64,000 bases of DNA from Candidatus Sulfomarinibacteraceae bacterium (lineage in GTDB: Bacteria > Acidobacteriota > Thermoanaerobaculia > Thermoanaerobaculales > Sulfomarinibacteraceae), in assembly GCA_963796455.1 (NCBI GenBank), contig CAWCLO010000010.1:192001-256000 (forward strand), given 5' to 3'. Positions within the stretch are counted from its first letter, which is position 1. Each line of letters starts with the position of its first letter. A model generated the notes under the pieces. It was given only the letters and a program-made list of their open reading frames with translations, had not been told where the DNA came from and did no database searches. Below are positions 4,491 to 53,576 of the stretch, in pieces. A program made the translations under genes and the position numbers.

Positions 4491-4521
4491 GCCGGCCCCC
4501 ATTTTCCTCTCATATCAACGG

Positions 4522-5645: not shown

Positions 5646-5663
5646 AGCTGCCGCCCTCCCCCG

Positions 5664-6278
5664 TCATTGCCCAGGACCAGCGGCCGGGCCGCCATCTTCA
5701 GTGCCTGCGATCTCGGGCGGTTCAACGATGAATGTGCAATCGAGGCTGAAGGTGAAGGTGTCACCCTGGGATCGAGCCATGTTCTTCAGCCTCGGTTCAT
5801 CGAAGAACGGAGAGGCGTCGATGTTTGAAATAAAGTTGGCGACCGCATTTTCGTCCATCGCGGTACCTGCGATCTGGACCGATTCAACCTTGAGGGTGAG
5901 CCTCGAAAGCCAGACCAGTTCGGGCAACGCCCGCGAAACCTCATCCATGATTCGGACGGGTCCGCGCTGGTTCTTTTTGAGTTCGTTGATCACACCGATT
6001 TTGTGGCGGAGCGCTTCGCGGCGGGCCTCGAGTTGTTCGACCTTCTTGATATAGACCAGCAACTCATCGCGCTCACGCCGTTTCTGACGTTCCACCTCCT
6101 GCATATTCGAGCGTTTGCTCGTCAGCAGGTACCACTGAGTGCCGACCACGATGGCGGCAATCGCGAGAACGATCAGGAGAATGATATCGCCTTGCTTGGC
6201 CCCCAGCGAAAACGAAGGCCGTTCCGCCTGCGATGCCGCTGCTGCCGGGGTCTCAGCAATCAGGTTGATCTTTATCAT
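5664..6278 (-). CDS. pilN: Type IV pilus assembly protein PilN
   Basis: MIKINL start motif, TM, coiled coil, LPELVWL, VANFISNI. Confidence 0.93.
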   Translation of the reverse strand: MIKINLIAETPAAAASQAERPSFSLGAKQGDIILLIVLAIAAIVVGTQWYLLTSKRSNMQEVERQKRRERDELLVYIKKVEQLEARREALRHKIGVINELKKNQRGPVRIMDEVSRALPELVWLSRLTLKVESVQIAGTAMDENAVANFISNIDASPFFDEPRLKNMARSQGDTFTFSLDCTFIVEPPEIAGTEDGGPAAGPGQ

Positions 6279-6282
6279 GGCG

Positions 6283-7332
6283 TCACTCTCCGACCCTACG
6301 CACCGCAAGACCCACCGCGACCGACATCGCCGATGCGTGTCGGTTGATCCATTCCGGATCGAAGTCGGACTCACTGTAACGAATGTTCCGGAAGGGGTTC
6401 ATGACTTCGACTGCCACCTGAAAGCGCTCGCGAATGACCTCATCGAGATTGAGGATTCCGGCGCTTCCACCAGCAAGTACGACCCGATCGATATGGTCCA
6501 CCGAAGAGGTGGCGACAAAGAAGTCGACGGTCTTCTGCAGTTCAGCCGTCAGATCCTCGGAGACACTGTTGAGCACACTCAATACCTGCTGCAGAGTGTT
6601 TTCGCCGACCCGCTCGCCGAGTTTCAGCCGTTCGGCATCATCGCGCGACAGGCTGAGTTCTCTTTGAATAGCCTCGGTGTACTGATTTCCGCCAAAGGCC
6701 ACATCGCGCCAGAAGATCGATGTCCCGTGATAGAGAACGTTGATGTTCATCACCGAGGCGCCGACGTTGACCAGCGCAATGGTCTCGGGGTCGACATCGT
6801 AATTGGTCTCGAAAGCATTCTGTACGGCAAAGACATCGACATCCACCAGAACCGGGTCTTTGCCGGCCTGGACAATCACCGACGTATAGTCCGCGATGCG
6901 GTCCTTTTTCACCGCCACCAACAACACGTCCATGGTGTCGCCGGCATCCGAGTCCAAAACGACGTAATCCAGGTTGACGTCGTTGATGTCGAATGGAATG
7001 TACTGCTCGGCTTCCCATTGAATCGATTCGGCGAGCTCAGCGTCCGTCATCGACGGCAACTGAATCTTTTTGATGATCACCGAATGGCCCGACAAAGAGC
7101 CGCCGAAACTTGAATTCTTGATGTTATTTTCGGCGATCAAACGGGACAATGCCTCGACCACAAGTGACGAGTCCATTATCGCGCCGTCGACAATCGCCTC
7201 CGGAGAGAGGTCCGCGATTGCCGCGTGGAGAAGTTGAAATTCGCCGCTTTTCAACGGCTTCAACTCGACCATCTTGATCGCAGACGATCCGATATCACAA
7301 CCAACGACTTGTTTTTTAGGCTTACCAAACAC
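6283..7332 (-). CDS. pilM: Type IV pilus assembly protein PilM
   Basis: VGCDIGSSAIKMVEL, WEAEQYIPF, LAGGSA, VAVGLAVR (FtsA/actin-like fold). Confidence 0.96.
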   Translation of the reverse strand: MFGKPKKQVVGCDIGSSAIKMVELKPLKSGEFQLLHAAIADLSPEAIVDGAIMDSSLVVEALSRLIAENNIKNSSFGGSLSGHSVIIKKIQLPSMTDAELAESIQWEAEQYIPFDINDVNLDYVVLDSDAGDTMDVLLVAVKKDRIADYTSVIVQAGKDPVLVDVDVFAVQNAFETNYDVDPETIALVNVGASVMNINVLYHGTSIFWRDVAFGGNQYTEAIQRELSLSRDDAERLKLGERVGENTLQQVLSVLNSVSEDLTAELQKTVDFFVATSSVDHIDRVVLAGGSAGILNLDEVIRERFQVAVEVMNPFRNIRYSESDFDPEWINRHASAMSVAVGLAVRRVGE

Positions 7333-35190: not shown

Positions 35191-38100
35191 TCAGTCCTGT
35201 CGCCAGTTGGTGACGATATGCCCCGCCACATTCGGGAACTCCTCGGTTTCTCCGGGAGTGACGTGGCTGTCGGTGAATGACACATAGGTCGTTCCATCGA
35301 TATTGTATTCCTCACTCCCAGTATAGAAGTCATTGCTCTCGGTGTAATCACCGAGACCACACTGGAACCACAGTTTATAGGTTCGGCCGAGCCCGGATGC
35401 CTTACAGATTAGCGGATCGCCGGAACCGCCGGGGTCCGGGGTCGGGGTGGGGCTGGGACCGGATCCTCCACACTGGTCGGGCACATTGTGGCTCGCCGTT
35501 GCTCCTTCGGTCGGATCAAAGGTGGGGAAGAGGACGTATCCATTGACGACATTGGCGCGGTACATCACCTTTTCGTTGGGTCGCAGGCTGAGATACCAAC
35601 CGTAAAACCCGTCGTTGGGTCGGAGGGCGCTGTCGGTGCAATCGTAGGACCCATCGAGTTGGTCGTAACTCTCTCCCACGAGATCACCTGCATCACGCAG
35701 GACGTCATCGCCGACGTCGAGCAGGAAGAAGAAATGATCCACGTTGCCGACTTCGGTATCGAGATCGGCGCGGTCACCGGAGCCGAGGGCCAGGCCCCAG
35801 GTGTAGTCGGAACCATCAAAGATCGCCGGGACCGTGATGGGACGGAAAAAGAACTCCTGACGATGGGGGAAATCGAGTTTGAAATCAAAAATTGGGGTCA
35901 GCGTACCGGCGTCACCACCGGTGGCCAGCGGATCTTTGGGCCCCGGGAAACTGAGCCGGTGGACTCCACCATTCGAATCTGCAAAGTAGATTCGATCGTG
36001 GAAACCATCGATGTCGGAATCCAGCGCTGTCGGGCCCGCCGGAACCGCGTAACCGATGTTGGCGGTATAGACGACGGCACCGGTTTCGATATCGACGCCG
36101 TAGATGTGCCGCCCCGTAAGATCGTTCTGTGTCTCGTCGTAACCACCGCCAAAGAAGGCGATGAAGACGTCGTCGGGTTCTTCGGGCGTCGCCCCGTTGT
36201 ACACGGCGATCCGTGCGATGGCAGGTCGGGACCAGGTCCACCCGAGATCCCAGAACTGCGGGCAATCGGCCACAGGGGTACCGATCGGACACTGGGAATC
36301 CCGGTCCGTTTCGTCTTTGAATTCCCAGAGAACCTTCGGATATTCGCTGTCACAACCGGCAGTGCTGCCGTTCAGACAACCGGGGAAAACGGGCGAACCG
36401 GAAGAGATCGACGGAATGTAGGCCGGCGCCGAGCCCAGGGGATCGGGCTGAGTCACATCCAAAGCGGTCATCCCGCGACCGCCCCGACGCATGGTCGCGA
36501 TGGCGATGGTCCGCCACTCACGATCGCCGTCACCATCGTGGTCGATGTAGACATCACTTGATTCGATGAACCCATCCACCATGTATCTCGGTTCCTCTTG
36601 ATAGGTCAGGGCCTTGAGCCGGTACATGACCGCGTCGGGAACAAATGCAAAGAGTTCACTGCCATCGCCGAGATCGTGTGCGAGGTCGTAGGTTTCGTCC
36701 GAGGTCACCCGGTCGCGATCCCAGATGCCGGCATCAAAGGCGTGCAGCATCCCGTCATTGGCTCCGGCAAAGACCACTCTGCGACGCTTGGCGTGCTTGT
36801 CCATGAACAATGGGTAGTCATGGGCCCCGACCTCGGTCGAGCCGCCGTAACCATAGTCAAAGAAGAACATCGAACGATTGGGCGGATTCACCACCACCGG
36901 TTGTGAGTGGTAGATGTCGCCCAGAACCGATGTGCCGACCGGGCGCGGATTGGGCCGCGGGTTCGGCGTCACGGCCGTATCATCGTCCATCCAGATATCG
37001 CGGACAAAATTCACAACCTCCTGGACCTCGAGGCTGCCCTCGGTCCCGGTGAATTTCAACCGCGCCAACAGATCGGTCTGCAGATCCGTACTGGTTGCGA
37101 CATCGGCAAGATTGTAGCGTTCGAGATCGCCGGAGTAATCGCTGGCCATGAAAACGTAGCGCTTGGGATTGCCTTCGGTATGGGCCGCAATCTGTGCCTC
37201 GAGGCGCTGGTTGGAGTTCCAGGCGTTGCCGCTCACCTGCTCGATGATGATCTGACTGACATCGATCTCGCAGTCGGGTGTGCTCGGCAGAGTCGGCTGG
37301 CTGGCGTCGAACTTGAAGCCATAGAGGTTGCCTCGCCACAGCGAGTTGCTTGGCTGCGGTTGGAAGAAGGGATAAACCGAAAGAAAGTGCTGTTGTTCGG
37401 CCGGAGCGCCTTCCTGCGGTGGCGGCGGCGATACCTTGAACGGGATGAAAGACCGGTTGTCCGTCTGCAGCGAGTTGATGACTTCGTGCAGGGCAGTCGC
37501 GAGTTCGGAGGCGTTCCGCGCCCCAAAATACTGCCCGCCCGTGGTATCCGAGATACAGGTCAACTGCGGCGGCGCATCGGCCACCGTCTCCGAGAAACCG
37601 ATGGTAAAGACCTGCATCGGCTCGATACCATTTTCCGGAGCCGCGAACTTCGACGCCGACTGTCCTGGATCGCACGAGAACTCACCAGGCCCGGCGCAAC
37701 TTTCCGCACCGTCGGTGATCAATACGACGTACCACTTCCGACAGTCGACAAGGGGATCGTCGGCCCAGTCTCCGTTGGTCACCTGCTCGATATACCAATC
37801 GTATGCGTCGAGCAAGGAGTTGTTGATGGGCGTCGCGCCGTCGGCGACCATCGGAACCGGATTATAGGTCGGGGACGCGGGGTCGTTGTCGAAGTCGTCC
37901 TGCCACGAGAAACCGCCGGCTCCGTCGCTGAGATAGTCGACCGCCGAGGACATGGGCTCGAGGAAGGAGCGGATCGAGGCAAAGTCCGTGCCGTCGCCCG
38001 GCACCGGCAGATCCGTCAGCAGATTCCAGCCGTTGCAGTAATTGGTTGTCGTCGTGTTGTTGGGTGACGTGACCGCGGGCGGCGAGGTGTTGACATCGAT

Positions 38101-39189
38101 CTTGCGCCCCGCCACCTGGCGACCGGCCGAGTAGTCCACCAACCCGCCTTCGTAGAGAAGTTTGAAGGGTATTTCCTCAGAATCCACTTCCGTCCAGGCG
38201 CTCCACGGGTCGCAGACCAGACCGCAAGTGTCTCCCCAGGCTCCGACTCTGAAGTTGTCGAAGAGGGTCGTATTTTGACCGGCCCCGGAAGTGCTGTAGC
38301 GCCCACCCTGATAAAAGCCGGCGGCGCCCGGGGTCAGAGGGGCCGCTGATTCCGTCCACTCCATGAGAGTGCACCAGCATCTCTCGGGATCGGTGCCTCC
38401 CTGGCTCGAACAACAACCAAAGAACTGCAGATCGATGCCCTGGTGTTGCAGACGTTGGATCTGCACCCGCAGGTTGCTGCAATACCACTCGAGACGCAGA
38501 CGGTAGGCGTGATACGGGATGAGATACTGGGTATAGGGGTCACTGGTCGGAAGACTGATGCTGCCGCTGCCGAGGACCGACCACGAACCTTCAGCAACAA
38601 AACGGAGCAGGACCCAGGACGCCCGGTATCCTGCAGCGGCTTGGACTGCGGTGGGGAAGTTTCTGACACCAAAGAGATAACCTTGGTCGGGATTGTTGTC
38701 GCCATCGGGGTCCTGCATGCCCCACACCAAGCCGGGTTTTCCGCCTTGGGAGATTCCGATATCGAGCTCCATTCGGATGTTCGTCCAATCGGCCGGAACA
38801 TAACCGGGATTCGTGGGCTGTGACTGCTTCGCGATGAGATATCCCCACCAGCCGCTCCTGACCAGGGTTTCCTCGATGCAACGGGAACCCCAGACTCCAC
38901 CGCCAACCTCGGGGGGAATGAGGGGGAGGGTCGTGCGGTACGTGAAGTCCATCGAACCACCGTTGACCAGCCACTCATCCCAGATCGCCCCGGTCCCATC
39001 GAGAGGATCGTCCGGTGGCCGCGGCGAGGTTGTGGTCTCGAAGTCGTCATAAAAAACCAGCGCCGGCGCCGCGGCGGGGAAGACCCCACCCCAGGCGACA
39101 GGAGCGCTTGCCATCACGAGCAGAACACCGCACAACAGTGCGCGGGCTCCGGATGGGAGCGTTGTTTCGGATCGCAGTTGACTATTCAT
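35191..39189 (-). CDS. pilY1: PilY1 chain B, module 2: lectin-like domain + C-terminal half of vWA + beta-propeller
   Basis: Signal peptide; VFYDDFE...FDNFRV ConA-like domain; GATPINNSL, VVLITDG, VFTIGF; LGDIYHSQP, GANDGMLHAFD, DSDIDGFHDR Ca site, terminal NWRQD. Confidence 0.88.
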   Translation of the reverse strand: MNSQLRSETTLPSGARALLCGVLLVMASAPVAWGGVFPAAAPALVFYDDFETTTSPRPPDDPLDGTGAIWDEWLVNGGSMDFTYRTTLPLIPPEVGGGVWGSRCIEETLVRSGWWGYLIAKQSQPTNPGYVPADWTNIRMELDIGISQGGKPGLVWGMQDPDGDNNPDQGYLFGVRNFPTAVQAAAGYRASWVLLRFVAEGSWSVLGSGSISLPTSDPYTQYLIPYHAYRLRLEWYCSNLRVQIQRLQHQGIDLQFFGCCSSQGGTDPERCWCTLMEWTESAAPLTPGAAGFYQGGRYSTSGAGQNTTLFDNFRVGAWGDTCGLVCDPWSAWTEVDSEEIPFKLLYEGGLVDYSAGRQVAGRKIDVNTSPPAVTSPNNTTTTNYCNGWNLLTDLPVPGDGTDFASIRSFLEPMSSAVDYLSDGAGGFSWQDDFDNDPASPTYNPVPMVADGATPINNSLLDAYDWYIEQVTNGDWADDPLVDCRKWYVVLITDGAESCAGPGEFSCDPGQSASKFAAPENGIEPMQVFTIGFSETVADAPPQLTCISDTTGGQYFGARNASELATALHEVINSLQTDNRSFIPFKVSPPPPQEGAPAEQQHFLSVYPFFQPQPSNSLWRGNLYGFKFDASQPTLPSTPDCEIDVSQIIIEQVSGNAWNSNQRLEAQIAAHTEGNPKRYVFMASDYSGDLERYNLADVATSTDLQTDLLARLKFTGTEGSLEVQEVVNFVRDIWMDDDTAVTPNPRPNPRPVGTSVLGDIYHSQPVVVNPPNRSMFFFDYGYGGSTEVGAHDYPLFMDKHAKRRRVVFAGANDGMLHAFDAGIWDRDRVTSDETYDLAHDLGDGSELFAFVPDAVMYRLKALTYQEEPRYMVDGFIESSDVYIDHDGDGDREWRTIAIATMRRGGRGMTALDVTQPDPLGSAPAYIPSISSGSPVFPGCLNGSTAGCDSEYPKVLWEFKDETDRDSQCPIGTPVADCPQFWDLGWTWSRPAIARIAVYNGATPEEPDDVFIAFFGGGYDETQNDLTGRHIYGVDIETGAVVYTANIGYAVPAGPTALDSDIDGFHDRIYFADSNGGVHRLSFPGPKDPLATGGDAGTLTPIFDFKLDFPHRQEFFFRPITVPAIFDGSDYTWGLALGSGDRADLDTEVGNVDHFFFLLDVGDDVLRDAGDLVGESYDQLDGSYDCTDSALRPNDGFYGWYLSLRPNEKVMYRANVVNGYVLFPTFDPTEGATASHNVPDQCGGSGPSPTPTPDPGGSGDPLICKASGLGRTYKLWFQCGLGDYTESNDFYTGSEEYNIDGTTYVSFTDSHVTPGETEEFPNVAGHIVTNWRQD

Positions 39190-39207
39190 GGCTGCCTCCT
39201 GCCCCCA

Positions 39208-41397
39208 TCACTCGATCTCGGTCGGTGTCGGCGGCGGCACGGTCGGTGTCCGCGTCGGCGTCGGCGGCGGTGTGTTGGTCCGGGTCGCAGTGGCTGCGAC
39301 GGTCGGCGTCAGCGTCCGGGTCGGTGTCGACACGGCTGTGGTCGGCGTCAGCGTCCGGGTTGGCGTCGCCACGGCTGTGGTCGGCGTCAGTGTCCGGGTC
39401 GGGGTCGACACGGCCGTGGTCGGCGTCAATGTCCGGGTCGGTGTCGACGCCGCTGTGGTCGGGGTCTGAGTCCGGGTCGAGGTGCCCCACGGAGTCGGTG
39501 TCAGCGTCCGCGTCGGGGTCGACCAAGGCGTCAGCGTCTGCGTCGGGGTCCGCGTCGAGGTGCCCCACGGAGTCGGCGTCAGCGTCCGGGTCGGGGTCGA
39601 CCACGGCGTCAAGGTCATTGTCGGGGTCCGCGTCCGCGTCGCCGTGCCAAACACCGTCGGGGTCCTGGTCGGCGTCGGTGTGATCCACCACGGAGTCTGG
39701 GTCGGGCTCGGCGTAATGGAAGCCGAGGTGGGTGTTCGCGTCCGGGTCGGGGTCGCAGACAAGCTGCCGTAGTCGTCACAGATGTCGTTGCAGCTGACAC
39801 CCATGGTCAGCACGTCGAAGTCGAGGCAGAGCTCGTGATAGGCCGTGTGTGTGAAGTTGTTGTCGATGTCCGCATACCAGTTCCGGCTCGAGGTCGCCGG
39901 AATGCGGGCCAGTGACGGCACGGTCGTCGTCTGGATGCTCGGGGTGTTGTAGTCGGTTGAGGGCGATCCATCACCCCAGTAGTGGGTGTTGGTGGAGTGC
40001 GAGTAACCACCCGAGAAAACGCCGAACCAGTCCAAACGGTAACTCGGCGAGAGCGGCTGCCAATCGACCACCGTGCGGGTGATCTCGATCTGGAACGAGG
40101 TCTGGTTGTTGATGACCGCGCGCAGGATCCCGCTCTGGGGTGAGGCCATGGTGACGGTGATATCGCTGCAGTCGATCATCGGTGTCGGCGTCGGAGTGAT
40201 CGTCCGGGTCGGCGTCTGGGTACTGGTGGCGGTTCCAGTCGGAGTGAAGGTCGGCACAACCGGAACCGAGCAGGTTCGGCTCTGCTGCTCCTCCACCGCT
40301 TCGATATAGAGCATCCAGTCGTTGGACTCGTCGCCGTCGAAATCCGGGTCATCGGTTGAAGCATCCAGGTCATAATTGTCGACGCCCGGATCGGCCACCA
40401 GTTCGTTACCGACCAGAGAGCCTGCACCGTTGACAGCAAGTGGGTGGTTTGCGTTACCCGAAGTATTGACCGCCGGAATCCGGAGCTGCACCCGCCGTCG
40501 ATACTGGGTGACATCGCTTCCGGAAACTGTTTCCCACTCCGCACTGCACCCGTCATCCGGGTTGCTCGCGTCGGGAGCCCTGTTGGGCACACAATCCGGG
40601 AAACCGTTGGTGGTCGGATCGCCGTAGTACCACTCGTCAGGGATCATCTTCCCGAGACCATCGCGCTCGCCGGAGGCGTAAAATGGAAAGACGTTGTCTT
40701 TGCAGATGGTCTCGTCGTCACTCGGGTCGTCGGTTTCTTTGCTGTCGACAAAACAGTTGCCGAAGTAAACCGGCATCAAATCATAGGGGAGGCGCGTCGT
40801 GGAGTCGCCCGGGACGTCCTCGAGCCCGGTGTCCCAACCGGTGACCGGGCCAAAACGATCAGTGACCACCGAAGCGTCGGGGTCGAAGTACGGGCTGTAC
40901 CCGATAAGCTCGTTTTTCAATATGTCAGCTGGATTGTCGACCAGGGCACCGGCAAAGGTCTCGTTGTAGCCGATGCGATAGGCATAGTTGGCCTCGATGA
41001 GGCTGAATCGATCGGCCGCGCGGGACTCATATATCCAATGCTTCTGGGGGATCGGGTTGGATCCATCGGTGGGTTGGGCTTGAGCGTAGCCCGCGAGCGC
41101 ATAGTTGGCGTCAGAAACTTCTTCGAGGAAATCGGCGAGCACCGTCTTGGCGATACCCATCCGCGAGTAGGGATCGTCGCCACCACCCGGCACCATTCCG
41201 TAACCCACACGGGCGCCCTCGACCTTGCCCGGCGCTTCCGGGCTACCCACCATCGACTTGGAAGTGTCGAGGATGAATATCAGATTGGGTGGAGCGGCCG
41301 TCTCGCGAAGGAAATCCCGATCTTCGGCGTCGAGAGCTCCGGCCAGACCGACCGCCAGGGCCAGTGCGAGCCACGTTGTCCATCGTCTCTGTCTCAT
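39208..41397 (-). CDS. PilY1 chain A, module 2: N-terminal half of vWA + variable domain + Thr/Pro stalk
   Basis: Signal peptide; [14 protein letters not shown]...[10 protein letters not shown]...NYALAGY as in PilY1 N-termini; ends in a long TPT-repeat tail. Confidence 0.82.
39301..39462 (-). repeat. 39-bp coding tandem repeat ([12 protein letters not shown][S/A]), about 4 copies; 78-bp repeats adjoin to about 39620
   Basis: Units start at 39301, 39340, 39379, 39418. Confidence 0.85.
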
Positions 41398-41417: not shown

Positions 41418-41948
41418 TCAGTAACACAGCTGAACCGGCGTGAATTGCTCCTCCAGGAATGGGAAGGAGGTCACGTCCACCTCGACCGTCGCACGGCTCA
41501 CGCCCGCGAGGCCGCCGATGGTCCTCTGGGCGTCACTGCGCATGTGAAAGTGACGTGTTTGGTACTCGGGAAACGAGGACGGAACCCCGCCTGCAAAAAC
41601 CGGCGTCACCGGTTGGGTTTCGCAGAAATCGCTGACTGTGACCGTGAACTGGCCTTTGAGAAGTCCCTGAATATTTGGATCGTCTTCGAGAATGAATGTG
41701 CCGGGAGCACCAACGGCGCCGAGTTGGATCATCTCGATCTGCATCATCGCCCCCGCGTCGGCTGCGTACATCGCCTTGGCCACCCATCGATCCGTGCCCG
41801 AAGCCTGCAGACCAAGAGAGGTCTGCAACAGGAGCCCCATCCCGAGAAAGACCAGCACCAGGGACACCAGGAGGGCCATGATCAGAGCTGCACCTTTCTC
41901 GCCGGAATCGGCTCGAGCCGGGCACTCAGGAGTCACTCGGTGCTTCAT
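41418..41948 (-). CDS. pilX: Minor pilin PilX-like, module 2
   Basis: [15 protein letters not shown] prepilin site without Glu5; AMYAADAG PilX N-terminal motif. Confidence 0.82.
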
Positions 41949-41958
41949 CGCGCCTCCA

Positions 41959-43044
41959 TCAGAAAAGAAAATTGCGGAGCGCGGCCGCAACCTCGATGCG
42001 CCGCCACTTGGCGCCGCGGTCATAATCATCGATGTCCGCATCCTCGATCTGGAAAGTTGATTCCGGTTCGTTCCACCCTGAAACCTGCCAGGGGGTCCGT
42101 CCGAGCACCGTGATCCGGATACCGATGTTGCGGCTGTCCACAGCGTCAGCTGCCGTCGGGGACTGCTCCCACTCGTTTTGATCCACCAACCCGTTGTTGT
42201 TGGCGTCGATCCCGAGGGCGATCTGAAGACCGCCGATATTCGTCGCCACCGGTAGATCGGAGGCGCCAAATCTGTCGGCACGCATCCGTCTCAGCTCGAG
42301 GGCCGGGTTGACGTAATAAACATAGGACTCGAAAACGCCGATACGGTAGACGTCGAAGTTGGGCGGCATCGCGGCACCCGAGGGGTTGAGACCCCAGAAC
42401 CACGCGGCCGTCGAACCCTGAGCTTTGATGGGGATGGTCAGCGTCCGGTTGGGATTGACCCCCGCCAACACCGATCCGGAAGCGATCTGGCCGACCACGT
42501 ACCGCGACTGGTCGAGGTTGCCCATCATGACCACTCCGCGGCCCTCGAGGCCGGCAACATCCACGTCCCCGATCAGATTCATGATGGTATTGCCGCCATC
42601 GATCGATGTTGTCTCACGGACCACGACCTGCAGCGAGCCGGTCGAAAAATCCGATCTGTCGACAAAAAATGGAGGGATTTCGAAAAAGCCCCGCATCATC
42701 AGCACGTCGGAGCCCTCTTTGACTGCCACCGAAGTGCCGAAGGGGGTGGTAAAAGAACCCGACACATCGTTGGCGACACCACCCGCGATCCAGGTCGGCG
42801 TCCCTGCCACATTGACGGCAAGCAACATCGTGGCACCGCCCATCATGCGCGCTGTGCGCATCATGTGATAGGCGGCAAAACGCACGTTTTCCTGGGTGTC
42901 GGCAAGTGCGGTTTCGATTCGCGACACCTTGGCCGACGAGTCGAGGAGGTTGAGGATTCCAATCATGAAGATTGCAAAGACGGCCATTGCCACCATGACC
43001 TCAACCAGGGTATAACCCGCACGACCGCGTAAACCGATTTTCAT
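41959..43044 (-). CDS. pilW: Minor pilin PilW-like, module 2
   Basis: AG|YTLVEVMVAM, QENVRFA...RMMG, NIGGLQIALGID, terminal LRN. Confidence 0.88.
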   Translation of the reverse strand: MKIGLRGRAGYTLVEVMVAMAVFAIFMIGILNLLDSSAKVSRIETALADTQENVRFAAYHMMRTARMMGGATMLLAVNVAGTPTWIAGGVANDVSGSFTTPFGTSVAVKEGSDVLMMRGFFEIPPFFVDRSDFSTGSLQVVVRETTSIDGGNTIMNLIGDVDVAGLEGRGVVMMGNLDQSRYVVGQIASGSVLAGVNPNRTLTIPIKAQGSTAAWFWGLNPSGAAMPPNFDVYRIGVFESYVYYVNPALELRRMRADRFGASDLPVATNIGGLQIALGIDANNNGLVDQNEWEQSPTAADAVDSRNIGIRITVLGRTPWQVSGWNEPESTFQIEDADIDDYDRGAKWRRIEVAAALRNFLF

Positions 43045-43048
43045 GACC

Positions 43049-43507
43049 TTATCCCGGAACCTTGAGGCTGGTCACTGTAAGCACTCGGCGGCCTTCGAGA
43101 ATCTGATTGGTCGAAGCGACGGTCATCGAAATCCGCTTGAGGTTCGCGTCAGCAGCCGTCGCGGCTTCCGTCCATGCCGCGGAGGCCTCGGTCCAGTTCT
43201 GCACCCGAAAGTCTTCGACCGTGTAGTTGATCGTGAAATTCGGACTCTGAGGATCCAATGTTGCCGGGGTGCCGGCAGTGTCGACCAAGGCGGCATCATC
43301 AAATGCCAGCGCCTGCAATCCTTCGAGAGCAAATCGAGCCTCGGCCGCCAACAGGGCATAATCGTGTCCCGAGGCGTTGGTCACCATCGCGTGCGAAAAC
43401 AGACCGGCAATGCCCAGCGCGACAAAGCTCAATATCATCAAGGCCACCAGGACCTCAACGAGGGTAAAGCCGTCATGCCCACCACGGTTCTGATCAAAAC
43501 CGCCCAT
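43049..43507 (-). CDS. pilV: Minor pilin PilV-like
   Basis: DG|FTLVEVLVALMILSFVALGIAGL; between fimT-like and pilW-like genes. Confidence 0.82.
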   Translation of the reverse strand: MGGFDQNRGGHDGFTLVEVLVALMILSFVALGIAGLFSHAMVTNASGHDYALLAAEARFALEGLQALAFDDAALVDTAGTPATLDPQSPNFTINYTVEDFRVQNWTEASAAWTEAATAADANLKRISMTVASTNQILEGRRVLTVTSLKVPG

Positions 43508-44148
43508 CAGTACCTCCAGTGCCTCAGCTCGGGAACCCAACCGTTGGCTTCTTCCGCATCCCACATCCGTTCTTCCACGGTTCCCGAGGCACGAACCTGA
43601 ATCATGATTCGGTTGTTGTATCGATCCGACAGCACGAATGCGCCGATGCCCGCACCCACATCGTTGGCGTGGACGATGGCGCTGCCGTCGGGAAGAAAGA
43701 CCACGCCCCGGGTCGTCCCCGACATCGGATGCAGCGACCAGTTCGTCTCGGTCGGTTCCGGTCCGATAAAAGTATTTGGTCCCATGGGCCAGCGGCCGAC
43801 CACCTCATCGCCCGGATCCGGCGCCTCATCAGAGGTCTCATCGACCCAGGCCACCACCGTATGATTGGGTTGCACCGAGTCTTCAGGCGTCAGTAAGACC
43901 GCCACGCGGCGGCTGTTCTTGATCGCGTTGATTCGCGCCACCGCCAGCGCCTGGCGGGTCATCTTGACCTCGTCCATGAGATCCGCCCGCACCATGGCTC
44001 GGCGCAGATTCGGAATGGCGATGCCGACGATCAAACCGATGATGGCCAACACCACGAGCAGCTCGATCAGAGTGTAACCGCGCTGCGAATCTTCGCGGCG
44101 GTAGTCGGCAAACGATTCGGGCCCTTGACACTTCATCAATTCAAGCAT
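43507..44148 (-). CDS. fimT: Minor pilin FimT/FimU (GspH)-like
   Basis: RG|YTLIELLVVLAIIG...AIP, ARINAIK, VVFLPDGSA; GGGAGG RBS. Confidence 0.82.
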   Translation of the reverse strand: MLELMKCQGPESFADYRREDSQRGYTLIELLVVLAIIGLIVGIAIPNLRRAMVRADLMDEVKMTRQALAVARINAIKNSRRVAVLLTPEDSVQPNHTVVAWVDETSDEAPDPGDEVVGRWPMGPNTFIGPEPTETNWSLHPMSGTTRGVVFLPDGSAIVHANDVGAGIGAFVLSDRYNNRIMIQVRASGTVEERMWDAEEANGWVPELRHWRY

Positions 44149-44328: not shown

Positions 44329-44793
44329 CTACATCATCGGCGTCGGCATCATTTCGACCGGCACGATCTCTCCTTCGACCACCACGGTCAACCGATCGAT
44401 CCGGCCGATCTCGATGGGGGGTCGCTGAACCCTGCCGATCCGCATCCTTTCGCCATCATCAGCGTCAAACCGGCCCGCAATATTGATTTTTCGTTCTTCC
44501 CTACCTGAACGGTAGAGGATTTCCAGGCGCACATCCACGTGGCAGCCGTCCTTCTCACGACAGACGAAAAAGCAGGACCACTCGGTGTACTCAGGTTTGA
44601 CGAGGGCCTTGAGATCAACGAGGTCGACCGCGATATCGGGAGACTCCAGGGAGATTCCATCCACACTGAAGCCATCCCCACCCGGAGAAGCAGACGACCC
44701 GGAAGGGCCCCATGCCCGCCAAGCGACCAATGCGATCGCCACCACTGCGACCGAAGCCAAGGCAACAATCCAGGTTGTTCGATTCGACATCAT
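44329..44793 (-). CDS. Membrane-anchored hypothetical protein, paralog of 33872..34339
   Basis: TM; SPDIAVDL...WSCFFVCREKDGCHVDV. Confidence 0.8.
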   Translation of the reverse strand: MMSNRTTWIVALASVAVVAIALVAWRAWGPSGSSASPGGDGFSVDGISLESPDIAVDLVDLKALVKPEYTEWSCFFVCREKDGCHVDVRLEILYRSGREERKINIAGRFDADDGERMRIGRVQRPPIEIGRIDRLTVVVEGEIVPVEMMPTPMM

Positions 44794-44795
44794 TC

Positions 44796-45614
44796 CTACT
44801 GAATCGGGGTCGGTTGGGAGGGCGGTCCCGTACCGACTCGTCGCGCGGGTGCCTGACCGAGATCCTCGGGCGAACCCGAATCCGCCGGTCGTTCCCTTTC
44901 CATCCAGATAACGGTTGCACGGACATCGGGATGGTTCTTGTCAACCGGTTTCGCGGCCGAAAACACCTGCTCGAAGACCGCCTTTTCACCGGGTTCGAGA
45001 TAGGTGGCAACCTGAACTTGCGAACGCCAGATTTCCTCACCGGGTCCGGGCTGGCTTTCCAGACGAACGGAAATATTGTTGGCGGGAAAACGATTGCGAT
45101 TGACGATCTCGCCCGAAATCTGCCACTCGTCTTCACCGACCGAGATCACCCGAACTCTGTTGACGAGCACGTTCCCACCCTGTCGATAACCCTCAGGCAT
45201 TTCCCCGGAGGCCTCGACCTCAGGTTCCTCCGCAAGCTCGTCATCGCCCAGCACACCGCTGCCGCGAACATGCCGCACCTCGCGATCGGTGATGGCGAAA
45301 CCAGAAGCCGGTTCCCCACCGACGTTCTGGGGGCTCTTGAGCGTTCTTCCCGAGGTCAGTCGTTCAACGCTGTCGTTGCTTGGATCTTCGGCATCCGCCG
45401 ATCCGTCGTCAGCCTGGAGGAGGGCCTCCACATCCACATCGACGACGTCGTAGGCAACCCGTCGGCCATCCGCCAGTTCGAGCATCACGTAGGACCCGGT
45501 AATCCGAACCGAAGAGGCCTCGAGCACCGTGCCGTCACGCAGTCGGACCTCGACCGCCGCCACGGCGCCGGCCAACAATAGCGCGCAGCTCAGAGCCCAA
45601 AGGACACGTCTCAC
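44796..45614 (-). CDS. Secreted FxLYD-like protein, paralog of 34339..35187
   Basis: Signal peptide, ITDREVRHVRGSG, GEIVNR...LEPGEKAVF. Confidence 0.8.
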   Translation of the reverse strand: MRRVLWALSCALLLAGAVAAVEVRLRDGTVLEASSVRITGSYVMLELADGRRVAYDVVDVDVEALLQADDGSADAEDPSNDSVERLTSGRTLKSPQNVGGEPASGFAITDREVRHVRGSGVLGDDELAEEPEVEASGEMPEGYRQGGNVLVNRVRVISVGEDEWQISGEIVNRNRFPANNISVRLESQPGPGEEIWRSQVQVATYLEPGEKAVFEQVFSAAKPVDKNHPDVRATVIWMERERPADSGSPEDLGQAPARRVGTGPPSQPTPIQ

Positions 45615-45618
45615 ATGA

Positions 45619-48600
45619 TTACTCTTGTCGCCAGTTGGTAACGCTGTGCTCCCTGATCAACGGGAATTCCTCGGTCTCTCCGGGACCATCAGTGGTCCCC
45701 GTGAAAGTGACGTAGGTATCGCCGCCGATCGAGTAGTCCTCACTGCCGGTAATAATATCATTGTGTTCGGTGTACTCGCCGATCCCGCACTCGTACCACA
45801 ATTTGTAGGTTCGACCGATGCCCGTGGCGCGACACACGACGTCGACCTCGGTTGTCGAACCGGTTCCGGAACCGCACTGGTTCGGAGCATTCGTCGCGGT
45901 GTCGGTGGACGGGTCAAAAGTCGGGAAGAGCACGTAGCCGTCGATCACAGTGGAGTCGAAAACGACTTTCTCCGTGTCGCGCAAGGTGAGATACCAACCA
46001 TAGTCACCGCCCGTGGGATTCAGCACACTCCCGTCCGGACAAACAAAATCAAGGCTGTCGTCGAGATCAGCATCGCTGAAAACCAGGCTGCTGTAGTCCA
46101 TCTCGACCAGGTCCGCCTCCCCGCGTGTGGTCGTGTCACCTACATCCATCACAAAGAAGAAATGGTCGATTCCGGAATCATCGCGGGCCAGATCGGCGCG
46201 GTCACCCGATCCCATCGCCAGGGCCCACGTGTAACCGGTGCCGTCAAAGACCACTGGGACCAGGGTCGGCTTGGTGAAGAACTCCTGCCGGTCAACAAAG
46301 TCCGTCTGGAAGTTGAAGATATCGGTCAAGGTTCCAGCGGTCGCACCGGTCTGGCCCACATCCGTGGGCGAAAGATACTGGAGCCTGAAAATGCGGCCAT
46401 GGGAGTCGCCGAAATAGATCCGATCGTGGAAGCCGTCGATATCCGAGTCGAGGGCCGTCACTCCACCGGGGACATCGACACCGATCGCCTCCTTGACCAG
46501 GACGGTCCCGGTCTCGAGATCCACGCCGTAGAAGAAGGTCCCCGTGGCATCGGAGTCGGTCTCGTCCCAACCGCCACCGAAGAAGGCCACGAAGACATCG
46601 TCGGGATCGCTGGGATCGGAGGAGTTGTACACGGCGATCCGCGCGATGGCCGGCTTCGACCAGGTCCACCCGAGATCCCACCACGGCGCACAATCATCCC
46701 CTGAGAGACCACCGAGACAATTGGTGTCTTGATCCAACTCGTCTTTGAATTCCCACATCAGACGCGGCCACTCGCCGTCACAACCCGAAATGGATCCTAC
46801 CCGGCAACCGGCAAACTCTGAAACCTCGGGAAGATAATCCGGTGAGGCACCGATCGGGTCGGGTTGGGTGATATCGAAAGCCGCCATGCCCCGGCCGCCG
46901 CGCCGCATGGTCGTGATGGCAACCGTCCGCCACTCGCGGTCGCCGTCGCCATCCGAGTCGATGAAAGCATCGGACTTGGTGATCGGACCGTCCACCATGT
47001 ACTGGGGCTCGATGTGGTCGAGGCCCCCACCCGAGGTCAGATCATAGAGCCGGTGCATGATCGCCTGGGGCACCCAGGCTGCCAGCTCAGTTCCGGTCCC
47101 GAGATCGTGCACCAGGTGATAGTCCTCTGTGGTATCGACACGATCGCGGTCCCAGACACCACCATCGAAGAAGTGGAGCATGCCATCGTTGCCGCCCACC
47201 AGGATCATGCGCCGCCGTTTGGCCTGTTTCGTCATGAAGTCAACATAGCTGCTGGCGCCATAACCATAGTCGTAATAATAGGTTGGTGTATTTGGCGGAT
47301 TCACGATCAAGGGTTGGGAATGATAGAACTCGCCATAGACCGGATAACCCGTCGGTCGCGGCTCGGCCGGCGGCCCGGCGTTCCCCGCGGTGAAGTCGTT
47401 GTCCATATAGATATTCCGGACAAAGTTGGCGATCTGCTGCGACAGCACATCGTCTTGGGCTCCAGGCCGATTGAGATGATCCCAGAACTCGGAACGAAGG
47501 GTCGCGTTGTCCGGCAGCGTCGCCAGATCGTGGCGCGCCCATTCACCGGTGCTGTCCGAGCCCATATAGACGAATCGTTTCGGGTTGCCCTCGGTGTGGG
47601 CGGCGAGCTGTTCGGCCAGTCTTTCGCTTGCGTCCCACACCAGTTCGTCGGTGTCGAGTTCACAGTCACCGGTGGTGGGCAGGGTCGGCTGGGCTTCGTT
47701 CAAAGCAAAGCCGTAGAGCGAACCGCCCCACAAGGTAAAGCCCTCTTGCGGTTGGAAGAGCGGGAAGATCGCCAGCGAATCGAGCGAGGGCTCGCCGCCG
47801 GTCGAGGGCGGCGGTGGGGCGACCTTGAAGGGAACGAAGGACCGCGTGCCGGCCTCCAGGCGATAGAAGACCTGGTACAAGGCCTCGGAGAGCTGGCCGG
47901 CGTCTTCGGCGGTCAGGAAGAGGCCACCGGTCTGTTCGGCAATACAACTCAAGGGTGAGTCTTCGGCGACCGATTCCGAAAAACCGATGGTATAGACCGG
48001 CAGTGGCGGCACTCCCGGGATCCCCGGATCGGCGAACTTGGAGGCCGCCTCGCCCGGATCGCACACCTTGTCCGGATCCGGTTTGAAACCATTGGCCGGG
48101 CAATCGCCGACACCTGCCGGGGCGCAGGCCTCGAACTCGCATCCTTCTTCGCCATCGGTGATCAGCACCACCCACCAGTTGCGACAGTCCTCGTAGGAGT
48201 CGGTGGCCCAGGCCCCGGTGGTCTTCTGATCCACATACCAGTCGAAGGCCTCGAGCAACGAGCCGTTGATGGGCGTGGTGCCGTCCGCGATCATCGGCAC
48301 CGGGTCGTAATCCGGGCTCGCCGGGTCGTTGTCAAAGCTGTCGACCCACGAAAAACCGGAGTTCGATTCGTACTGAACCGCCGATGTCATGGGTTCGAGG
48401 AAGGTCCGAATGGCGCTCAAATTGGTCGAATCGGTGGGCCCGGGAAGGTCCTCGAGCAGATTCCATCCGTTGCAATAGGGGTTCGAGTCGATCGAACCGT
48501 TGTAGGAGCTGTCGAAGACGGGCGCTTCGGTGTTGACATCGATCTTGCCGAGTTCGGGCGCCGGTTGGATGTGGCGGCCGGCCGAGTAGTCGAACAGCGC

Positions 48601-49838
48601 GCCCTCGTAGAGATACTTGAAGGGAACGATATCGGTACGCTCGTGGGCCCATCCCTGCCACGGGTCGCAGACCAGACTGCCACCTGGGCCCAGATCTGAG
48701 ATTCTGAGGTTGTCGTGCTTGTATTCCCAGCTGGGGCTGAGGAAGGTCCACAGCTGGCTGCGATAAAAGCCGACCATCCCCGGGGTCGTGATGGGAGAGG
48801 GGTCGATCGAGTCGACCGGGCCCTGGAGGATTTCACACCAACAGTCGTCGATGTTGGCGTCGGTGCAGATCCCGGTCGGCGCGGCGGCCGAGGCGCAACC
48901 GTAGTAGAGGGTGTCGACACCCGGAGTATCGCCCCATGGCATCAGGTACTGAACCCGGAAGCTCGGGTACATCCAATCGAGGCGGAAACGAAACGCTCGA
49001 CCCGTCCTCAGGCATTGCAGTGAGGTCGTCGACAGGGTGGCCGCGGTCTCGGTCCCCGGCATCTTCGCGACCACGGGACCATTGGCGAGCTCGACCCAGT
49101 CCTGCTGGCCGGAGATGTTGCCGAGTCGATCCCAGCCCTTGACCCGTGCAAGGTGCCAGGTGGATTGGTAGGCCGGGAGCACGCAGTTGGCGCTGCTGCC
49201 AGTGAAGCCGTTCGAACTGCCGGGGGTGATGTAGAAGATGTAGCCGTCGGCCGGTTTGCGGTCGGCCGGACCGAAGTTGGTATCGACGGTCGACGAGAGA
49301 TTCCAGACCAACCCGGGCAAACCGAGCTGATGCCAGGCGATGTCGACCTCGTAGCGGATATTGGTCCACTGGGCGGGGTCGTAGTTCCCCGGATAGGGGT
49401 TCTCCGCGCCGTCATCAGGATCGCTCGGCGGGATCGAGTCGCGGATCACGTGGAAAACGCTGTTGGTCGGCGAACCGTAGAGGGCGAGTGCGTGCTGCTG
49501 GCCCCACATGAAATAGGGGTCGTTGTCAGCCCACGAGGGCTTGATGGCATAGACAAAGAACTTGGCCTTCCAGGACGAGCCGCTCTCCCACTGTTGCCAC
49601 TGCCACCAATTCTGGCGTCGGAGTCCCAGGGGATGCTCTGCGAGGTACTGTAGCTCTCGAAGTCCTCGAAGAAGACCTCGGTCGCGGCGGCGGGAAAGAC
49701 CTGGGCCTCGACCGCCGGCGCTAAGATCAGCGCCGCCAGTGCCAGGGCACCAAGCGCCAATGAGGCAAAACGACCGGTTTTTATTCGCCACCCGACGGGG
49801 GCCGATGTATTTGCGATGAGTCGTGGATAGTAATCCAT
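45619..49838 (-). CDS. pilY1: PilY1 chain B, module 1 (one frameshift near 49610)
   Basis: Signal peptide and VFPAAA..VFFEDF in ORF 49446..49838; remainder in 45619..49791 with GTTPINGSL, VVLITDG, VYTIGF, GGNDGMLHFFD, DSDIDGFHDR, NWRQE. Confidence 0.85.
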
Positions 49839-49856
49839 GGCTTTCTCCCGTTCTCG

Positions 49857-51874
49857 TCAGGTGGTCGGCGTCGACGTCTTGGTAGCCGTCGATGTCGGGG
49901 TCGGCGGACGCGGCGTGGCGGTCGCCACCGGCGTCGGAGTCGAAGTGGCCAGGGGCACCGGGGTATTTGTCGGACCCGGGTCGGGGTGTTGGTTACACTC
50001 CCGTTGTCGGCGTCCTGGTCGCTGTTGACGCAGAAGTCGGCCACGGCGTGTTGGTCGCCGGGACGGATGTGTTCGTCGGCGTCCTGGTCGGCGTCGGCGT
50101 GCCGTAGCTGCCCTCGTAGGTCACGGCACAGACGTCGTCGCAGTACAGATCGCTCCCATCACCCGCACCGCCGGCGATCTTGAAATCGAAGCACACCGTG
50201 TAGATGCCGTCCCAGATGATATAGGGCGCGCTGTCCCTGAGATAGGCCCACCAATGGGTGGTGACCCCTGCGCCGATATTTTCCGTACCCGCGTATCCCC
50301 CGGTGGCCGGGAGGGTCGTCAGTTCAACCGGGCGCACATATCTGCCCGGTATAGGGCACAACGCTGTAGCTGCCGGTGCTTTCGTCCCAGATCTCTTCCG
50401 AGGTGGAACCACATTAGTTGGTGGCACCGTCGGTGCAGATCCGCATCCAATCGTGGTAGGCCCACTTGCGCATGTTCTGGCCCCAGTCAAAATAGAGGCG
50501 TTCGATGGTGGCGGTCTGTGGGTGGCCGTTGTAGAGCGTGGCCCCCATTTGACCGGCATAGCCCGAACTCGAGCCCTTCCGCATGTTGGTGACCGAGACC
50601 CGGCAGGTCGGGGTCTGGGTCGGGGTCGGGGTGAAGGTCTCCGTCGGCGTCGGGGTGATCGTGAAGGTCGGGGTCCAGGTCGGTAGAGTCCCGGCCGGCA
50701 CACACACCTGCGTATCGCGCTCCTCGACCGAATTGACATAAAGCATCCAGTCGGAGGTGTCGTCACCGTCGTAGTCACCTTCATTGACGCTGTCGAGGTC
50801 GTAGTCCTCGGGTTGGCCGGTCTCCGCCACAGCCTCGTTGCCGACTGGGCTCCCGCCGCTGTCGACTGCAAGAAAGTGGTTGGGGTTCCCGCCGACCGTG
50901 GTTGGGATCTCGAGCCGAATCCGCCTTTTGTACTTGATGAGATTCGGGCCGACCATCTCTTCCCACGCATTCTCGCAGGCGCCGGCGACCGGGCTGCCGG
51001 TGCCGTCGTCCCAGATCGGATCGTTGGGGTCGCAGCCGGGATAGTCCTCATCGGCCGGGTCGAGTTGGCCGTAATACCACTCCTCGGGGATGATCTGCCC
51101 GGTTCCGCCATCGCGGATTCCGGAGTCGTAGAAGGGAAAGACATTGTCCTTGCAAAGGGTCACGTCGTCGGTATCGTCTGCCGGAGTCTGCATGTTGTCT
51201 ACAAAGCAGTTACCGAAGTAGATCGGCATCAAATCGTACGGCGGGGGCACATCGACCTGGGTCACCGGCGGTCCAGGGTCGGTGTAGGTGTAGTCGATCC
51301 AACCCGTGTCGTAGGCGTTCACCGGACCAAAGCGGTCGGTGGTCGCGGTCGTGGCGGGGTCGAAGTAGAGCTTGTAACCGATCAAGCGGTTTTTGATGAT
51401 ATCCGCCGGAACATCGAGAATGATGCCCGAGTGGTTTTCCGAATAACCCATCCGGTAGGCGTAGGTGGCCTCGATCATGTGGAAACGATCCTGGGCGCGC
51501 GCCTCGTAGACCCAGTGTTTCTGCGGAATCGGGTTCGAGGCATCGGTGGGTTGGGCCTGGGCATATCCGGCCAGCGCGAAGTTCGCCTGGCCGACCGTGT
51601 CCAGGAAATCATCCAGAACCTTTTTGGCGATACCCATCCTCGAGTAAGGATCGTCGCCCGCGCCGGGCACCATGGCGGCGTTGACCTTGGCGCCGTCAAG
51701 GATTCCGGGCACCTCGGGGCTGGCCACCATCGAACTCGATGAATCGAGGATGAAAATGATATTCGGAGGCGCCGCCACCTCGCGCAAAAAATCGCGATCA
51801 TCGGCGAGGGCAACCCCGCACAGACCGACAGCGGCCACCAGCACCAACCATCTCGTGAGTCGACTATGTCTCAT
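49857..51874 (-). pseudogene. PilY1 chain A, module 1: N-half vWA + variable domain + Thr/Pro stalk; disrupted in this assembly
   Basis: PPNIIFILDSSSSM...SRMGIAKKVL; in-frame TAA at 50414..50416 and frameshifts near 50345, 50000 and 49978; TPT tail ends with TGA at 49857. Confidence 0.75.
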
Positions 51875-51896
51875 GACTGCTCCCTCGATCGGCACA

Positions 51897-52421
51897 TCAG
51901 TAACACTCCCCTACGGCTTCGAACGCCTCTTCGTGAAATGGGCTGGCAACCACATCGGCCTGTACCGCCGCACGGGTCGTGCCCGCGAGACCGCCGATGC
52001 TTCGGGTCGCTTCGCTGCGAAGATAAAAATGGCGTTCGAGATAACCTTCTTGAAAACCCACCATCGGTTGCGCGGGTTCGGTTTCGCAAAACTGGTCCAC
52101 GGTGACGCTGAACTGTCCTTTGAGGAGACCCGGCAGATTGCCGTCATCCTCCAGAATGAAGGTCCCGGGTGCGCCCACAACCCCCATTTGAATCATTTCA
52201 ATCTGCATCATCGCACCGGCATCGGCGGCATAGAGCGCCTTGGTCACCCAACGATCGGTTCCGGAGGCCTGGAGCCCGAGCGAGGTCTGCAACAGCAGAC
52301 CCATGCCCAGAAAGACCAGCACCAGCGAGACCAGAAGCGCCATGATCAAGGCCGCACCGCGCTCGGATTCCCGATTTGCGTGGCGGGTCAGCGGCTGGGG
52401 AATGTTTTGGTTCAGCATCAT
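51897..52421 (-). CDS. pilX: Minor pilin PilX-like, module 1
   Basis: [24 protein letters not shown]-terminal half nearly identical to 41418..41948. Confidence 0.82.
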   Translation of the reverse strand: MMLNQNIPQPLTRHANRESERGAALIMALLVSLVLVFLGMGLLLQTSLGLQASGTDRWVTKALYAADAGAMMQIEMIQMGVVGAPGTFILEDDGNLPGLLKGQFSVTVDQFCETEPAQPMVGFQEGYLERHFYLRSEATRSIGGLAGTTRAAVQADVVASPFHEEAFEAVGECY

Positions 52422-52427
52422 GCCCCC

Positions 52428-53576
52428 TTAGATCATGAAGTTCCGGAGAGTGGCCCTGAGCTGGATGCGACGCCATTTGGCGGAGCGATCCACATCACTG
52501 GCTTCCATGTCCTCGATATTTTCGAAAGTTTCGGCCGGTTCCTGCCACTCGGGAACCGGAAATGGCGTGCGGCCCAGAACGGTGATCCGCATCCCGATCA
52601 CCTGGTCGCCGGTGAGATCGCCGGGACCGGTCGGGGCGTTTTCCCACTCGCCGGCCTCGACCACACCGTTGCCGTTCGTATCGACCCCGAGCGCGATCTG
52701 CAGGCTGCCGATGTTGACCGCCACCGGCTCCGGACCGCTGGAAGAATCAGAAGTCCGAAAACGCATCAGGGTGTTGTCGTTGCGGACATAAAAAGTGTAG
52801 GACTCGAGGATTCCGACCCGGTAGACCCTGAAGGTCGGGGGGTAGGACGCCAGTGCAGAATTCATCTCCGGCCAGAAGGTTCCGTCGCCGGCCTGGTGTT
52901 GAAGCACCAACTGCTGGTCGGGGGAGCTTCCCGAAAGGATCGAACCGGAGGCTATCTCACCGACACAGTAGAGACCCTCACCCATGAAGATGATTCCCCG
53001 ACCGGCAAGACCGCTGACCGTTAGCGCATTGAAATTGTTGACCGCAGTTCCGGCAGGGTTTTTCTGGTTGATATCGAAGGTCCCGGAGCCACTGGCGTTG
53101 TATCCATTGGCATCGACAAAAAAGGGAGCCACCTCGAAGAAACCCCGAAGCGTGATCACATCACTACCCTCGGCCACCTGGACGTTCGGGACATAGCCCG
53201 GGATAGTGACCGAACCGCTTTGGTTCGAGGCAAGCTGGCCACTGACCCAATAGTCGGTCCCGCCGTTTCGGGTGGCAAATGGCATGTCGCCGCCGCCGAC
53301 CATCCGCGCGGTGCGCATGATGTGATATGCCGAAAAACGGACATTCTCCTGGGTATCGGAGAGGGCCTTTTCGAGCTCGGAAACCTTGGTCGAGGTATCG
53401 AGGAGGTTGAGGATTCCAACCATGAAGATCACAAAGACCACCGTGGCGACCAGCATCTCGATGAGCGTGTAACCCGCGCTGGACCGGGATCCTGCGCGAA
53501 AGACACGCACAGCGATCGCCCGCTCGCATCGCCGCTCGGTGTGTTCTGAATCACAAAGTTGACCTGGATGGTTCAT
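52428..53576 (-). CDS. pilW: Minor pilin PilW-like, module 1
   Basis: AG|YTLIEMLVA, QENVRFS, NIGSLQIALGVD, terminal LRNF. Confidence 0.86.
   Translation of the reverse strand: MNHPGQLCDSEHTERRCERAIAVRVFRAGSRSSAGYTLIEMLVATVVFVIFMVGILNLLDTSTKVSELEKALSDTQENVRFSAYHIMRTARMVGGGDMPFATRNGGTDYWVSGQLASNQSGSVTIPGYVPNVQVAEGSDVITLRGFFEVAPFFVDANGYNASGSGTFDINQKNPAGTAVNNFNALTVSGLAGRGIIFMGEGLYCVGEIASGSILSGSSPDQQLVLQHQAGDGTFWPEMNSALASYPPTFRVYRVGILESYTFYVRNDNTLMRFRTSDSSSGPEPVAVNIGSLQIALGVDTNGNGVVEAGEWENAPTGPGDLTGDQVIGMRITVLGRTPFPVPEWQEPAETFENIEDMEASDVDRSAKWRRIQLRATLRNFMI

Follow-up and report, generated by a model that had tools for sequence, protein, structure and literature searches.

The closest described counterparts of the system reported here are PilY1 of Pseudomonas aeruginosa and PilY1.3 of Myxococcus xanthus. 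In parts of PMC11525922 and PMC13190605 these are described as encoded after fimU-pilV-pilW-pilX, with a signal peptide, many cysteines, a von Willebrand factor A (vWA) domain that carries a MIDAS (an adhesion site which depends on a metal ion) and an insert domain, and a PF05567 propeller. The same features, the signal peptides being putative and the vWA domain predicted, are found in a gene pair, A and B, within a 64,000-nucleotide stretch of Candidatus Sulfomarinibacteraceae DNA (the window; GCA_963796455.1, contig CAWCLO010000010.1, positions 192,001 to 256,000). Unlike single-chain PilY1/PilC, however, they are divided here between two genes cut inside the vWA insert, with extra domains at the new ends. 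The split inside the vWA domain is real and conserved. From the modelling and comparisons below, we consider it highly probable that A and B form a split PilY1 tip adhesin of a type IVa pilus, two exported chains co-folding into one vWA lobe that caps the pilus.

The vWA domain of P. aeruginosa PilY1 has its insert after the first strand and before the first helix (PMC11525922, in part), whereas the large insert here follows strand B. A type IVa pilus subunit made by two genes as a two-chain unit is described for PilA-N/PilA-C of Geobacter sulfurreducens (PMC11046646, in part), but there two domains of the major pilin are separated, whereas here the cut falls within one fold and divides the metal site. 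Completion of a tip-complex sheet by strands in trans is described in part of PMC13533445 for the C-terminus of PilY1/PilC with PilX/PilK; B ends in a candidate for such a strand. There a single terminal strand is donated, whereas here the contribution in trans would comprise two strands from the centre of the sheet, a helix and the greater part of the insert domain. Finally, vWA and lectin modules both occur at the pilus tip of Streptococcus sanguinis, on PilB and PilC (PMC11046646, in part), but as whole domains grafted on separate pilins with no fold split.

The genes for A and B (Table 1) are divided by a single TGA, with both chains in the same frame in this genome. The junction reads GAG TGA TGGGGGC AGGAGG CAGCC ATG, in which AGGAGG gives B its own ribosome-binding site. 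A preliminary description of the locus had proposed that A holds only the first vWA elements and B the missing ones, and a motif search of both chains bears this out. ILDTSKSM, SRMGIAK and NYALAGY lie at A42, A78 and A98, while GATPIN, VVLITDG and VFTIGF lie at B451, B488 and B527; neither chain has the motifs of the other, and the full DxSxS...T...D motif is present only in A and B together. Both leaders, judged by eye and by hydrophobicity, are hydrophobic and end in Ala-x-Ala-like sites.

A profile of the A core matches 51 of 77 genomes of the family Sulfomarinibacteraceae, which are sediment bacteria, and 34 of the 46 of high quality. We surveyed the junction in 40 regions fetched from part of the matching genomes, plus the window, which together gave 46 A-core ends. 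A B vWA half was found downstream of 41 of these, in a separate open reading frame (ORF) at 40 and in the same ORF at one; some of the 40 carry frameshifts as well. The loci with both halves represent 33 genomes and nine genera, and B adjoins A downstream in every locus long enough to show the order. The A tail is intact at 27 junctions in relatives. The two genes share a frame at 14 of them and differ in frame at 13, and each of the 27 has both a stop and a hydrophobic leader before the first domain of B. Since 13 of the 27 are out of frame, sequencing error or stop readthrough is excluded as the source of the split. These counts, with 40 split loci against one fused, uphold the view of the preliminary description that an assembly error is unlikely.

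A recent survey attributes adjacent two-gene PilY1 copies to annotation error (PMC13190605, in part). For this genome, the idea that A and B are one polypeptide, with the TGA an assembly error or read through, can draw on the shared frame across a single TGA, on assembly breaks in a tandem paralog of the locus (module 1, described below) and on the fused form in one relative. We regard it as extremely improbable in view of the out-of-frame junctions and of the stop and leader in all 27 relatives, and because the halves are separated by a Thr/Pro tail, a ribosome-binding site and a putative signal peptide. Moreover, the differences listed for public contigs that cover the spacer come down to one insertion of 2 bases, at 39203 in a single contig; a further 16 substitution rows lie outside that listing. 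The public runs were contigs only, and none shared more than 0.33 of the words. A 381-base piece matching A with three differences is present in one RNA run, which is no proof of expression.

The same partition is seen across homologs. In a search of proteins of 400-1276 aa, which excluded longer ones, A had 79 homologs, 74 with DxSxSM and none with the TDG strand. Conversely, [TS]DG was found in all 58 homologs of B and DxSxSM in none. No substitution occurs at the MIDAS residues of either chain: D44, S46 and S48 of A are present in all 74 ungapped rows, and T453 and D493 of B in 57 of 57. The records of the homologs are labelled Thermoanaerobaculales or Candidatus Sulfomarinibacteraceae. Judged by sequence and context, A and B together belong with the PilY1 family but depart from its single chain, the adhesion domain and propeller being in two ORFs at 40 of 41 loci.

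We then modelled A25-382 with B316-590 in three runs and with three controls, using our own alignments. The pair scored 0.90 with 502-521 contacts, whereas the best of the three controls scored 0.00; the score mark is reached by 116 of 157 solved complexes and by 2 of 215 mismatched pairs, a calibration that is rough for our own alignments. The runs shared at least 85% of contacts, with a predicted local distance difference test score (pLDDT) of at least 82 for each partner. With unrelated partners pLDDT dropped to 59 for B and 46-64 for A. In the model, A strand 38-43 runs parallel to B strand 486-491, A101-102 is antiparallel to B390-392, and B supplies the edge strand 388-392, so that the two strands of A sit between strands of B in the predicted arrangement B(C)-A(B)-A(A)-B(D,E,F). 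A second mixed sheet is predicted in the insert domain, where B342-345 is flanked by A122-124 and A363-364 and A370 touches B332. The preliminary description had listed the insert as a feature of A; A does contribute a share, but in the model the insert domain is common to both chains.

In a canonical vWA domain the sheet is Rossmann-like, with strand A parallel to strand D and strand C antiparallel. The predicted order of the A and B strands matches the canonical one. The modelling gave a single predicted Rossmann-like sheet with strands of both chains, and the proposal that the vWA fold assembles in trans is supported by the model together with the invariant MIDAS parts. The model supports binding of A to B without showing it. 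Neither chain holds a full vWA domain by itself, an interface is predicted and the ORFs are separate; none of the opposite outcomes, which the preliminary description had named as refuting its proposal, appeared. In profile searches against the PDB the A core had no sequence match at E up to 1 and the B half a weak one to 4rck (E 0.0018), which makes recall of a close complex unlikely, though what the predictor has learned of vWA folds may shape the Rossmann portion of the model. We also asked whether DYSAG of B (residue 352) could be a degenerate stand-in for the MIDAS and rejected the idea, as the model puts this region in the insert-domain interface and an A strand beside VVLITDG.

These data bear on whether A and B still work together. 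They might have become independent, each half-domain being completed by a homodimer or another partner, or persisting as a relic. A has its own tail end and B has gained an unrelated N-terminal domain, and the complex models covered only A+B and controls with unrelated partners. Nevertheless, B follows A wherever the locus extends far enough to tell, the two halves complement each other with zero overlap, the confidence of each model collapses without the other chain, and cysteines have been lost from both chains in a matched manner (see below); we therefore judge independence to be very unlikely. Slightly less remote, yet still improbable, is a transient association in which A is a folding partner or a shed periplasmic plug and B alone tips the pilus. 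This would fit a chain A without the PilY1 C-terminal anchor strand, the finding that a C-terminal propeller can suffice for pilus assembly (PMC13533445, in part) and the absence of the linking cysteines in one clade. It fits poorly with some 500 predicted contacts that place A strands centrally in the sheet and with MIDAS residues invariant on both chains, and the variable PA14 and beta-sandwich modules of A make sense at a surface.

With regard to origin, the single same-ORF locus, in genome G034, encodes a protein of 1316 aa (P0143; L046:4044-8198) in which the A core is joined directly to the B half, without passenger domain, Thr/Pro tail or ConA-like domain. In a profile search with no length limit it was the only carrier of a B half among the 12 new close matches of at least 400 aa listed. 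Distant matches cover only the first ~100 positions of the A core, with a B half further on in nearly all that are long enough. From their sequences these appear to be ordinary single-chain PilY1 proteins with a large insert after strand B, their two vWA parts lying ~350-700 residues apart; in five of them, PF00092 was above its cut-off in one and below it in two. Among 301 sampled genomes of the class, a tally that includes two unpublished genomes (G104 and G180), full-length A cores were found only in the family Sulfomarinibacteraceae. Outside it, no match extended beyond the first 117 positions, and most lay in open frames of 1,200-2,200 aa. Hence fission appears to have occurred within the vWA insert and to be confined, among the genomes searched, to Sulfomarinibacteraceae.

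In trees the close split and fused forms make one clade (100/100) against single-chain outgroups. The fused homolog has weak support (81/73) for grouping with a split B, and a tree constrained to keep all split rows in one group was not rejected (approximately unbiased test, p-AU 0.22, with 22 of 59 rows; another tree used 35 of 59). By sequence, the fused G034 form may be ancestral or may have arisen by re-fusion. Rows of the fused, A and B types misaligned when combined in one alignment, which was set aside.

The model and the cysteine patterns also suggest that A Cys376 and B Cys326 probably form an interchain disulfide, a case that combines one evolutionary event with the model. The cysteine count is odd in all 38 split A cores, comprising paired cysteines plus Cys376, and in module 1 C237 and C322 of B are lost together and C326 is kept. 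C376A marks one A clade of 10 and C326N one B clade of 6; either replacement arose in a single change, and the two clades occupy matching positions in the trees. Three A/B pairs of these clades are on equal-sized contigs (13785, 10860 and 8726), which suggests that they are adjacent but is no proof. The antiparallel contact A370-B332 extrapolates to 376-326, and in fused P0143 a distance of 11 residues separates the two linking cysteines. When metagenomes were scanned for the cysteine-less clade, one short contig was obtained.

Taken together, we propose that an old gene fission in Sulfomarinibacteraceae cut the domain inserted in the vWA fold after strand B. Both chains would be exported by Sec and, once in the periplasm, would fold jointly into a single lobe of vWA and insert on the propeller of B, since prefolded halves could not interleave in this way, and the disulfide would lock them in most lineages. 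The last ten residues of B would anchor the pair to PilX and so cap the minor-pilin complex, A reaching the tip only via B. The new ends carry extra modules, a variable beta-sandwich or PA14 with a Thr/Pro tail on A and the ConA-like domain on B. Such a tip would present a metal-dependent MIDAS site and one or more probable glycan-binding modules.

Several points weigh against this proposal. What the sequences show is gene structure and conservation; the interface is a prediction, and ligands, tip location, disulfide, metal binding and export are inferred. All the structural evidence is prediction, from a model of the protein chains alone. In the complex test, chains derived from one split gene tend to succeed through likeness to solved vWA folds, and the calibration of that test with our own alignments is rough. 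Pfam found a vWA match in neither A alone nor B alone, nor in fused P0143. The MIDAS of that protein, which is the sole fused homolog among the close ones, is degenerate (DTSTAM, VTGSEE), whereas the split forms are intact. As to the disulfide, the C376-C326 pair is absent among the contacts listed, the cysteine co-loss is one event whose pairing comes from equal-sized contigs, and the cysteine-less clade shows that the bond is dispensable there. In addition, a pair of 2,000 residues with a flexible tail must still cross the secretin.

PilY1 has been treated as a single chain. If the proposal holds, a lineage-wide split in the middle of the vWA domain would mean that two secreted chains can together make up a MIDAS that stays functional at a pilus tip under force. 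Such a split would also offer a natural tool for the role of the PilY1 vWA domain, as deletion of one small gene would remove or swap the metal site and leave propeller and anchor intact. About 80 'hypothetical' proteins can be named as PilY1 front halves. Our literature search, outside supplements and most subscription journals, found no description of a split-vWA PilY1, in line with the preliminary description, whose author knew of none.

A more speculative reading, which we think doubtful as a whole, is that the split serves as a display platform in which disulfide-locked, co-folding chains allow the front half A to be exchanged. The A modules (PA14, beta-sandwich, a possibly glycosylated Thr/Pro tail) would then be variable ligand-binding elements, the A and B chains of the two tandem modules could mix to give combinatorial pilus tips, and release of A under force or reduction would act as a detachment switch.

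Table 1. Features of the split PilY1 locus and related genes in the window.
Feature	Position	Strand	Length, basis or remark
Chain A gene: PilY1 front half, passenger domain, Thr/Pro tail	39208..41397	-	729 aa
A putative signal peptide, residues 1-24	41326..41397	-	sequence; Ala24 nearly invariant
A vWA strand A with MIDAS DxSxS (D44, S46, S48)	41251..41286	-	74/74 ungapped rows; contacts B488-491 in model
A vWA helix 1 and strand B, residues 78-104	41086..41166	-	A101-102 contacts B390-392 in model
A share of insert domain, 105-376, Cys376 at end	40270..41085	-	model contacts; Cys patterns
A passenger beta-sandwich, ~405-545	39763..40185	-	model pLDDT 86.6; best fold match Z 8.1
A Thr/Pro-rich tail, 183 aa	39211..39759	-	composition: 75 Thr, 36 Pro
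Spacer, 18 nt, with AGGAGG ribosome-binding site	39190..39207	-	sequence
Chain B gene: PilY1 back half	35191..39189	-	1332 aa
B putative signal peptide, residues ~1-34	39088..39189	-	hydrophobic stretch, 27/27 intact relative junctions
B ConA-like (L-type lectin / CBM66-like) domain, 36-322	38224..39084	-	pLDDT 87.7; fold match
B share of insert domain (Cys326, strand 342-345) and vWA strands C-F, MIDAS T453, D493	37423..38223	-	conservation, model, 4rck match
B PilY1 beta-propeller region	35224..37422	-	PF05567 E 1.3e-13
B C-terminal strand ending NWRQD	35194..35223	-	52/58 homologs
Minor pilin genes	41418..44148	-	order kept in relatives
fimU-like	44148..43507	-	
pilV-like	43564..43049	-	
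pilW	43044..41959	-	
pilX	~41948..41418	-	
pilM to pilQ operon, type IVa pilus	2139..7332	-	TIGR01175, TIGR02515 above cut-off
Two conserved downstream genes, 282 aa and 155 aa	33872..35187	-	34339-35187, 33872-34339
Module 1 (pilW, pilX, A', B', two small genes), tandem paralog, broken	44329..53576	-	sequence

In chain A, the Thr/Pro tail named in the preliminary description stands, but tail and insert are not all that follows the vWA elements, as the separate beta-sandwich shows. This passenger domain varies among homologs, and PA14 (PF07691) occurs in the distant A chains P0077, P0142 and P0157. By fold match it has no clear family, the best hits being ApaG-like and Ig-like sandwiches. Pfam and NCBIfam assigned no family to A and no vWA to B, and for the A core ESM Atlas gave only leads below 0.9 (DUF8355, VWA_2).

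In chain B, the ConA-like domain and the PilY1 propeller are as first described. The former is a jelly-roll beta-sandwich in the fold comparison of the model, with Z 18.7 to 3zr5 (galactocerebrosidase C-terminal domain; root mean square deviation 2.9 over 184 residues) and Z 18.3 to CBM66 4b1m (2.1 over 155). Fold likeness by itself shows no function, and the added modules would probably provide glycan-binding sites on the tip. PF05567 scores 51.1 bits against a cut-off of 28.1. NWRQx is the C-terminal end in 52 of 58 B homologs, and A has no such end. The terminal strand of PilY1 anchors the protein to PilX/PilK by beta-strand addition (PMC13533445, in part), and by analogy that of B likely does so to PilX. 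Some homologs (P0088-P0090, P0114, P0118, P0121, P0124 and P0125) have Thr/Pro linkers between the ConA-like domain and the vWA half of B, longest in the clade without both linking cysteines.

The A-B pair occupies the PilY1 position of the fimU-pilV-pilW-pilX cluster, and the genome also encodes type IVa pilus machinery, including PilT-family ATPases; there are six matches above the PilT-family cut-off (G000 C10:303114, C1:552210, C1:91707, C1:90612, C1:1167311 and C1:463116). Its only PilY1 propellers are those of the two modules. Module 1 has an in-frame TAA at 50414-50416 and at least three frameshifts, near 50345, 50000 and 49610, and lacks the fimU and pilV found upstream of pilW in relatives. 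Public contigs show indels at 50345, 50002 and 49977-49978, so the breaks may be assembly errors or strain differences, and the module as a whole reflects either decay or assembly error. It does show the same split, as the preliminary description noted, but being broken itself it is weak evidence against assembly error, the strong evidence coming from the relatives.

Two genes of no known family come after B in most loci, and their module 1 counterparts are at 44796-45614 and 44329-44793 (minus strand). It is possible that they are dedicated tip-assembly factors. In L046 the first of the two is likewise found after the fused PilY1; it matches unnamed Acidobacteriota clusters in ESM Atlas (0.95). 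Directly upstream of the cluster, 53784-56204 (minus strand) encodes an Agl23/TIGR03663-family membrane glycosyltransferase (PMT_2) fused to NHL repeats, a gene also upstream in L039, L042, L044 and L050; its product is a candidate for glycosylating the A Thr/Pro tail or pilins. Beyond the cluster, 31111-33691 (minus strand) holds a pair of M16 peptidase genes, and an M16 gene is found there in many relatives.

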